Assembly (NCBI GenBank): GCA_000004695.1
Contig: CM000151.3
Coordinates: forward strand, 5,152,001-5,216,000
DNA: 64,000 nt
Reading direction: 5' to 3'
Origin: Dictyostelium discoideum
Taxonomy: Eukaryota
In this document: positions 13,037-14,886 of the stretch, one piece after another
Layout of the letters: each line of letters begins with the position of its first letter
Numbering within the stretch: position 1 is the first letter of the stretch
Made by a program: the position numbers and the translations under genes
Notes under the pieces: generated by a model
Told to the model about the DNA's origin: nothing
What the model saw: the letters and a program-made list of their open reading frames with translations, nothing else
The model's database searches: none

Positions 13037-14886
13037 CTATGCATATTTTGAAACCTTTAATACCAATGGCACTTGTTTACCAGATAAAAATATTTTATTT
13101 TCCACTTCATTTTGAAGATTTGAATTTTTAAATAACAACAAATAATATACAAAAATGAAACCAGTTAATGCTGAATCAAAACCTGCTGAGTGAACATTTT
13201 GACCTTCCATTTTAAATAATTCTTTATATTTATTATTATTATTATTATTATTATTATTATTATTATTATTATTATTATTATTATTATTATCATCTTCATT
13301 TTCTATAATACTATTATTTACAATTGAAACTATATTTTCACCTTCAGTTTTTTTAATTTCTTGTTCTTCGTTGAGTTTCTCATCTTCATTTGATTCTAAT
13401 TTATTTCTACTTCTTTTTTTCTTTTGACTTTTATGCTCTTCTAAATCTAACACTAAAGAGATATCGTGTGAATCTGGACAATTATCTTTTAATCTACAAT
13501 GACCATAATCCTATTTGTTTAAGAGGTTAATAATAATTTTTTTTTTTTTTTTTTTTTTTTTTTTTTAATGTTAATGAATAAAACTTACAGCAAAATCATT
13601 ACAAACTTTTATATTTGGTGAAATTGGTTTAATAAAAGAATATTCGGTGTTAATTAATGGTATAAGTATATTATCATCACCATCATCACTATCATTATCT
13701 GAAAATGCTTTAAAATCACAAGTTGCATATACTTCTTTTCTTAACAATCTCTTAAAATTAAATCTTTCATATTTTTGAAAAAGATATTGAAGATACGATC
13801 TTTTTTCACTAACTTTATATTCTGCTATATATTTTGTATCGTATCTATAATTTTTAAAAAGTTTTATACGCTTATTAATAAACAAATAAAATAAAATTTA
13901 TAAACATTTATATATTTTAAAATATTCTATAATTACATTTTAGGAAAAACTGATAAAATTTTTGAAATGAAATCGTTTAATTTATCGGGTAAATCACCAA
14001 TTAAAGATTGAAAAATAAATAAAAGGTCAAAAATACCATTATGAATTACAGATGGTAATTGTGCTTTTGTTAATATATCAAGTAATAATTTTGATCTACG
14101 TAATGTGTCTTCATGATTGTTATTATTATTATTATTATTATTATTATTATTATTATTATTATTATTATTATTATTATTATTATTATTATTATTATTATTA
14201 TTATTATTATTATTATTATTATTATTGTTTTTATTATTATTATAACTATTATTATTTTTTGTTGGAGTTGAAAATATTGGTCTTCTACTTTGAAATGGTA
14301 TACCATATAGAAATAACTCTTGGAAATCAAAGCCATGTTTTGATAAAAATGTCATTGATACTGGTGAAACTTGAAAATCACTAATGTTTAACATTATAAA
14401 ATTATAAACTCTAATAGTATAACTTTTTTCTAATAATGAGTGATTATCATCAATGCTATTATTGTAATTAGTTGGAGGCGTTACAACCTCACCTACATCT
14501 TCCTCTTTTGTATTATTTGGATTATAGTCCCCACTGCCGCTGCTACTAGTATTATTTTCTTCCTCTTTGTCATCTTTAAAATTTGCTTTAAATATTGAAA
14601 TACCAAACTCTAAAATTGATCTTTGTTTCACTAAATTAATCATTGCATGATACTTTTCTTGTATATCCTCTTGTTTTAAACCTTTTTGGAAACCTAAACC
14701 TGTAAATTCTGTATCTATTGAAATGAATGTTGCTTCCTTTAAATCATTTTCAAAGTTTATGATCTCTTTATCGAAATTTTTAAGTGTTACTCTTTTTACT
14801 AATGTTGTTGTTTTTGTTTTTGTTGTTGTTAAAATATTTTTTTTATTATTGTCGTCACTATCATGAATGTTGTGAGTTTGGTTCAT
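13037..14886 (-). CDS. CAF1/PARN-family DEDDh 3'-5' poly(A) exoribonuclease with inserted CCCH zinc finger (TOE1/CAF1z-like)
   Basis: Three exons on the minus strand: 14886..13937, 13844..13589 and 13510..13037. The introns are GTAATT...ATTATAG (92 nt, phase 2) and GTAAGT...AAATAG (78 nt, phase 0).
- The N-terminus aligns to PARN/TOE1: VTLKNFDKEIINFENDLKEATFISIDTEFTGL (ExoI DxE).
- ExoII: HNGIFDLLFIF.
- ExoIII: VHSAGFDSALTG, in the last exon.
- The exon2-exon3 junction creates a perfect C-x8-C-x5-C-x3-H finger (C NDFADYGH C RLKDN C PDS H).
- Long poly-N insertions are present.
- The ORF-track start MFGSILEKKKK is a poly(A) read-through; the real start is MNQTHNIHD at 14886. Confidence 0.7.

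Follow-up and report, generated by a model that had tools for sequence, protein, structure and literature searches.

Human TOE1, mutations of which cause pontocerebellar hypoplasia type 7, holds zinc through C300/C309/C315/H319, with its finger at the base of the helix in which the nuclear localization signal (NLS) lies. A passage of PMC10493513 that cites Wagner et al. 2007 describes TOE1 as the combination of a DEDD domain, a zinc finger of C3H type, and an NLS; for PARN, a passage of PMC2504292 states that an R3H domain "interrupts" the DEDDh region. Here, we analyzed a 64,000-nucleotide stretch of the Dictyostelium discoideum genome (assembly GCA_000004695.1, contig CM000151.3, positions 5,152,001 to 5,216,000 of the forward strand; hereafter "the window", with positions counted from its first letter), and focused on a three-exon gene on the minus strand between positions 14886 and 13037. 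This locus very probably holds an intact gene of expressed type, which encodes the orthologue of TOE1 (CAF1Z) in dictyostelids, a PARN-like DEDDh 3'-to-5' exoribonuclease. It represents a new member of a known family, with standard architecture and close to annotated members. The combination of a DEDD domain, one C3H finger, and an NLS is the defining and already described TOE1/CAF1Z architecture, not a peculiarity of this gene. The one small addition to knowledge is the conservation, across Amoebozoa and Opisthokonta, of the intron that splits this finger.

The proteins closest to the predicted 559-residue product were hypothetical proteins of other dictyostelids, namely D. citrinum (83% identity by BLASTP when the query was trimmed, and 89% if aligned columns are counted), D. 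purpureum (61%), Polysphondylium violaceum (42%), and Heterostelium album, followed by chytrid, zygomycete, and animal proteins named "target of EGR1 protein 1" by their sources. The exact protein had no entry in a collection of 15 billion sequences. In a profile search, which brought hardly any proteins not seen in the initial one, TOE1-type proteins obtained bit scores of at least 243, compared to at most 145 for PARN-type proteins. When two animal TOE1 proteins served as seeds, the search extended to vertebrates and yielded >120 TOE1 proteins, ranging from fishes through placozoans and ctenophores to Glomeromycota and Balamuthia, and the window protein matched a ray TOE1 with a BLASTP E-value of 8e-42.

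The nuclease domain matched Pfam family CAF1 (PF04857, E = 9e-58), with the full profile (positions 1–320) spread over residues 33–522. In an alignment of 17 TOE1 sequences that covers Amoebozoa, Fungi, and Metazoa, with three fishes among the latter, all five DEDDh residues (D58, E60, D287, H509, and D514) were present and invariant, and their counterparts in PARN are D28, E30, D292, H377, and D382, so that the DEDDh nuclease proposed in an earlier sequence-only reading of this DNA can be specified as one of CAF1/PARN type. Beyond these residues and the zinc ligands, the invariant columns included H282, N283, and G284, which together with D287 belong to the ExoII motif, and D319 in the IYDTK block, while a C-terminal NKIFLSGKQVPL block encoded by exon 3 was kept across the family. 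An AlphaFold2 model of the D. citrinum orthologue had a predicted template modelling score (pTM) of 0.74 and a confident core. Its predicted local distance difference test values (pLDDT) fell below 50 at the N-terminus, in an acidic loop (residues 104–153), in the poly-Asn loop (212–228), and in the linker between the NLS and ExoIII (409–455). When this model was compared to known structures with Foldseek, the PARN nuclease domain was the best match (E ~1e-12), followed by CNOT7/Pop2 (E ~1e-9 to 1e-10).

The second hallmark of the family is the zinc finger, which the sequence-only reading had described as assembled across an intron from two incomplete halves. The assembled translation bears this out: the junction of exons 2 and 3 joins ..KVCNDFA to DYGHCRLKDNCPDSHD.. 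and yields CNDFADYGHCRLKDNCPDSH, an exact C-x8-C-x5-C-x3-H at residues 398–417, of whose Cys exon 2 contributes just the first. The whole protein contains only four Cys, three of them in the finger, and shuffling its sequence 200,000 times never reproduced this pattern (for which 1.5e-6 is expected analytically). The four ligands C398, C407, C413, and H417 were invariant in the 17-sequence alignment, and the finger region alone matched 2fc6, a nuclear magnetic resonance structure of the finger from human TOE1, with an E-value of 3.5e-4, the window sequence being aligned as KVCNDFADYGHCRLKDNCPDSHDIS. The position of the finger between ExoII (HNGIFDLL, residues 282–289) and ExoIII (HSAGFDSALTG, residues 509–519) was likewise as first proposed. 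All aligned TOE1 proteins displayed a K/R-rich patch after the finger, and the model of the D. citrinum orthologue included a long helix following the finger.

The gene model itself was obtained by scripted assembly and translation of three minus-strand exons (14886–13937, 13844–13589, and 13510–13037), which form an in-frame coding sequence of 1680 nucleotides ending with a TAG stop codon at 13039–13037. Both introns have the lengths first predicted (92 and 78 nucleotides), GT..AG borders, and a preserved reading frame, and the exon 2–exon 3 splice with its donor at 13588 and acceptor at 13511 is supported by in-frame assembly as well as by an intron at the same position in other TOE1 genes. 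The introns were richer in AT (90.2% and 88.5%) than the exons (77–78%), and, if either were retained, translation would soon meet stop codons (*), as in FPKM*L* with intron 1 and DFAVSFIH*H* with intron 2. More generally, the AT content of the window (78.5%), its (AAT)n coding repeats, and its short introns of ~90% AT represent a dictyostelid genome signature. At the 5' end, the mechanically called open reading frame (ORF) starts at 15018 with a TTG codon followed by lysines translated from a 52-nucleotide A-run, and no in-frame ATG was found upstream of 14886. The D. citrinum and D. purpureum orthologues start at the equivalent Met in the alignment, all of which agrees with the earlier proposal that the start of the ORF track was a translated poly(A) tract and that the real ATG lies at 14886.

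For 12 other TOE1 genes, we derived exon boundaries from exact fits of the annotated proteins to the genomic sequence. A phase-0 intron after the fifth residue of the finger (C-x-x-[FY]-[AS] | x-x-G-x-C) was found at the identical position in 11 of these 12 genes, including those of D. citrinum, D. purpureum, P. violaceum, H. album, and Balamuthia mandrillaris, and also those of Spizellomyces (a chytrid), Basidiobolus, Trichoplax, Patiria (a sea star), and Betta splendens (a fish). Because the same position and phase are shared by Amoebozoa, Fungi, and Metazoa, this intron is ancestral to the TOE1 family and predates the Amoebozoa–Opisthokonta split. It also provides strong comparative support for the predicted junction of exons 2 and 3, and makes the assembly of the finger across an intron an old trait of the family instead of a local oddity. 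The sole mapped gene without a finger intron was that of Clavelina, which lacks introns altogether. This TOE1-like gene of Clavelina lepadiformis (L006 1501–2928) contrasts with the 4–7 introns of the fish, sea-star, and placozoan genes, and its intronless structure could stem from massive intron loss or from an origin as a retrogene.

The other introns displayed a more restricted distribution. Intron 1 (phase 2, FPK|IYDTK) was found at the same position and phase in D. citrinum, D. purpureum, P. violaceum, and H. album, and no equivalent was found in the mapped genes of fungi, animals, or Balamuthia. Conversely, an ancestral phase-2 intron before the conserved I[EQ][ED][KR]Y block (..DIQEKY.. 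/ ..IEDRY..) was missing from the window gene (near 14650) and from D. citrinum. Since this intron is kept in D. purpureum, P. violaceum, H. album, Balamuthia, fungi, and animals, it was lost in the lineage of the window gene and D. citrinum.

With human TOE1 (UniProt Q96GM8), the window protein shares a CAF1-family DEDDh domain (with ExoI residues D64/E66 in human and D58/E60 here), a single C-x8-C-x5-C-x3-H finger (C300/C309/C315/H319 and C398/C407/C413/H417, respectively) with a nearly identical core (C-[DN]-[ND]-F-[SA]-x-Y-G-x-C..CP.SHDIS), and a basic patch directly after the finger, with ExoIII located C-terminal to both. TOE1 genes of fish, echinoderm, and placozoan origin have the same phase-0 intron within their finger. 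On the other hand, overall identity to vertebrate TOE1 is only ~28–31%, and the window protein differs from the human one by its lineage-specific poly-Asn runs (38 and 19 residues), an acidic, N-rich loop of ~50 residues after the third strand, and the lack of a C-terminal tail beyond the last conserved strand. At the gene level, it differs by the dictyostelid-specific intron FPK|IYDTK and by the loss of several ancestral introns.

The sequence-only reading had given the poly-Asn runs lengths of 40 and 23 residues, its sole numerical error; the uninterrupted runs comprise 38 and 19. Tract 1 lies in a variable loop where the family alignment is rich in gaps and D. citrinum displays only a short N-rich stretch, and tract 2 in a hypervariable linker between the NLS and ExoIII; both are much shorter in D. 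citrinum. The almost pure AAT codons suggest that these tracts are lineage-specific AAT microsatellite expansions, presumably recent. An AlphaFold model had been proposed as a way to see whether the tracts form surface insertions. In the D. citrinum model, the loops matching both tracts were of low confidence (pLDDT <50), and the tracts are presumably exposed at the surface and tolerated owing to a location outside the folded core. Poly-Asn tracts are common in functional Dictyostelium proteins.

These large low-complexity insertions within the domain envelope, along with the ~148 of 520 residues of the orthologue model with pLDDT <50, could be taken to mean that the poly-Asn runs of 38 and 19 residues and the long acidic loop disrupt the nuclease fold, and that this gene is a copy in decay or without catalytic activity. 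We consider this very improbable: the ORF, both splice sites, the five catalytic residues, and the four zinc ligands are all intact, the insertions are confined to loops of variable length across the family, and the gene is under purifying selection, with a ratio of non-synonymous to synonymous substitution rates (dN/dS) of 0.15 over 508 codons relative to D. citrinum. In addition, a tblastn search of the protein against the whole window matched just the gene itself, i.e., there is a single copy and no intact paralogue in the window to compensate for its decay. The TOE1 locus is a real, functional, and ordinary gene.

An alternative assignment within the DEDDh nucleases would make the window protein an orthologue of PARN or PNLDC1, a cap-stimulated poly(A)-specific ribonuclease, and not of TOE1. 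PARN (PDB 2a1r, 3d45) is the closest solved structure by both sequence and fold, and shares with the window protein its Pfam family, its DEDDh signature, and the corresponding chemistry. However, the module inserted in PARN is an R3H domain located between ExoI and ExoII, and PARN ends with a C-terminal cap-binding RNA recognition motif (RRM), while the window protein carries a CCCH finger and a basic helix between ExoII and ExoIII and has no RRM. Consistently, no Pfam match to R3H or to the PARN RRM (RNA_bind, PF08675) was found in the window protein, which ends 40 residues after ExoIII, while a PARN-like homologue (P0018) does match RNA_bind. The site of R3H here holds just a poly-Asn loop, and the TOE1-specific finger and basic patch are both present. 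Finally, the bit-score gap described above and the shared intron positions point to a grouping with TOE1, making orthology to PARN or PNLDC1 very unlikely. Even less credible is an identity as CAF1/CNOT7/POP2, the CCR4-NOT subunit that acts in cytoplasmic deadenylation, enlarged here by lineage-specific insertions, as suggested by the name of the Pfam family, the shared core fold, and the Foldseek matches to CNOT7 and Pop2, since the matched chains are compact (~250–265 residues, for a window domain spread over 490 residues with a finger and NLS insertion) and ranked below PARN, no named CNOT7 or POP2 protein was found among the sequence matches, and the shared finger, NLS, and intron positions tie the window protein to TOE1. 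Proteins of the CNOT7/Pop2 type have a compact DEDD domain of ~250–290 residues that is uninterrupted and binds the MIF4G domain of NOT1, and they are not known to carry an inserted RNA-binding module.

With the TOE1 assignment retained, the alignment to PARN also clarifies how the two insertions relate. In the phmmer alignment, residues 174–201 of the window protein paired with PARN 111–138, and residues 264–325 with PARN 265–325, such that the large extra PARN segment (139–264), which contains R3H, falls between ExoI and ExoII, opposite the loop (residues 202–263) that bears poly-Asn tract 1. Between ExoII and ExoIII, PARN has ~42 unaligned residues, compared to 179 in the window protein. 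With the PARN segment aligned between ExoI and ExoII, and the finger located farther on, between ExoII and ExoIII, the TOE1 finger and PARN R3H are insertions at different sites. The parallel drawn earlier between the two thus stands insofar as both nuclease domains are interrupted by an RNA-binding module, but it does not extend to the insertion site, and is conceptual only. The ancestral intron lies inside the finger and not at its borders, which leads us to favor, with some reservation, a scenario in which the finger was already an integral, intron-split part of the TOE1 nuclease domain in the common ancestor of Amoebozoa and Opisthokonta, as opposed to a module acquired later by exon shuffling. 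With the same reservation, the tolerance of poly-Asn expansions in two loops, the first of which corresponds to the R3H site of PARN, would make these loops generally permissive insertion sites of the PARN/TOE1 fold.

By analogy with the human enzyme, the basic patch would make the window protein a nuclear one, in which two metal ions would be held by D58, E60, D287, and D514, with H509 acting as general base. The enzyme may remove oligo(A), along with several more nucleotides at the 3' end, from precursors of Pol II small nuclear RNA (snRNA) and similar small non-coding RNAs, with the finger and basic helix possibly helping RNA binding, and nuclear import as well. For human TOE1, such activity on precursors of snRNA and other small RNAs is known, as is its location in the nucleus or Cajal bodies. 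Several points weigh against this overall interpretation. The finger alone scored below every Pfam CCCH threshold (best match zf-CCCH_PAN3, E = 0.036), the support for both predicted introns is purely comparative, and the structural model is that of the D. citrinum orthologue and not of the window protein. Likewise, the proposed substrate specificity would be extrapolated from the human enzyme across more than 1 billion years of divergence, and a literature search for the biochemistry or localization of TOE1 in Dictyostelium found no relevant study. Overall, the locus can be labelled confidently as a TOE1/CAF1Z orthologue with a three-exon model, which has little importance beyond annotation. 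For the family at large, the finger-splitting intron conserved from Amoebozoa to vertebrates is useful for recognizing TOE1 orthologues and for checking gene models. In addition, Dictyostelium, which is haploid and tractable and in which TOE1 is single-copy within the window, could be a simple model for snRNA 3'-end maturation by TOE1.

Table 1. Coordinates of the TOE1 gene and its features, given as window positions except for the last row, which refers to other loci.
Feature	Position	Strand	Description
Exon 1	13937..14886	-	ATG 14886–14884; residues 1–316 and two bases of codon 317; ExoI, two variable loops, ExoII
Intron 1	13845..13936	-	92 nt, phase 2, GTAATT..ATAG, 90.2% AT; splits FPK|IYDTK
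Exon 2	13589..13844	-	Residues 317–402; conserved IYDTKY block (D319 invariant) and first five finger residues C398–A402
Intron 2	13511..13588	-	78 nt, phase 0, GTAAGT..ATAG, 88.5% AT; inside zinc finger after C-N-D-F-A
Exon 3	13037..13510	-	Residues 403–559 and TAG; remainder of finger, basic patch, acidic/poly-Asn linker, ExoIII, C-terminal strands
ExoI motif DTEF (D58, E60)	14704..14715	-	Invariant; equivalent to human TOE1 D64/E66 and PARN D28/E30
Poly-Asn tract 1	14116..14229	-	38 consecutive Asn, residues 220–257; 36 AAT and 2 AAC codons
ExoII motif HNGIFDLL (D287)	14020..14043	-	Residues 282–289; aligns to PARN HNMLLDVMH block with D292
C3H1 zinc finger	13466..13603 (coding 13603–13589 and 13510–13466, intron 2 between)	-	Ligands C398, C407, C413, H417
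Basic patch KSQKKKRSRNK	13400..13432	-	Residues 429–439; putative NLS and RNA-binding helix (presumed function)
Poly-Asn tract 2	13232..13288	-	19 consecutive Asn, residues 477–495; all AAT
ExoIII motif HSAGFDSALTG (H509, D514)	13160..13192	-	Residues 509–519; H-x4-D, DEDDh signature; aligns to PARN HEAGYDAYITG with H377, D382
52-nt A-run	14948..14999	-	5' flank (untranslated leader or promoter); source of spurious Lys run in mechanical ORF
Phase-2 intron before I[EQ][ED][KR]Y block	L002 3239/3312, L003 1751/1816, L004 1646/1760		

Beyond the gene itself, positions 6600–19400 of the window were collinear with D. citrinum contig JBTAPK010000007.1 (L001), at 73–84% nucleotide identity. A blastn comparison of these regions also suggested tandem paralogues of the TOE1 gene (window 14160–13008 vs L001 3748–4847, 69% identity). 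These were rejected as AT-rich compositional matches, since tblastn found the gene alone. Between these AT-rich genomes, blastn produced alignments of >1 kb at 68–72% identity between unrelated regions, which calls for caution in nucleotide-level repeat calls.

Upstream, an intergenic region of ~890 bp (window 14887–15777) is shared by two divergent genes and contains, in addition to the 52-nucleotide A-run, a T-run of ~17 nucleotides near 15020–15036; the homopolymers of this region create spurious Lys/Phe ORF extensions in six-frame translations. Other neighboring ORFs include a fragment of a convergent downstream gene (12059–12865, plus strand), an upstream ORF of 256 residues (18512–19282, minus strand), and a Ser/Asn-rich ORF (9841–10962, plus strand). 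A Pfam scan of these three and of the divergent upstream ORF yielded no match at E ≤ 0.01. This divergent ORF (window 15778–17757, plus strand, 659 residues) includes two copies of a Cys-rich motif (CC..C...ACLCQVP....G.L.E.GC..C.C.GCHP), a run of 25 Asn, a Pro/His-rich stretch, and a C-terminus rich in Arg-Ser and Arg-Asp, and its position is conserved in D. citrinum (L001 3422–5296).

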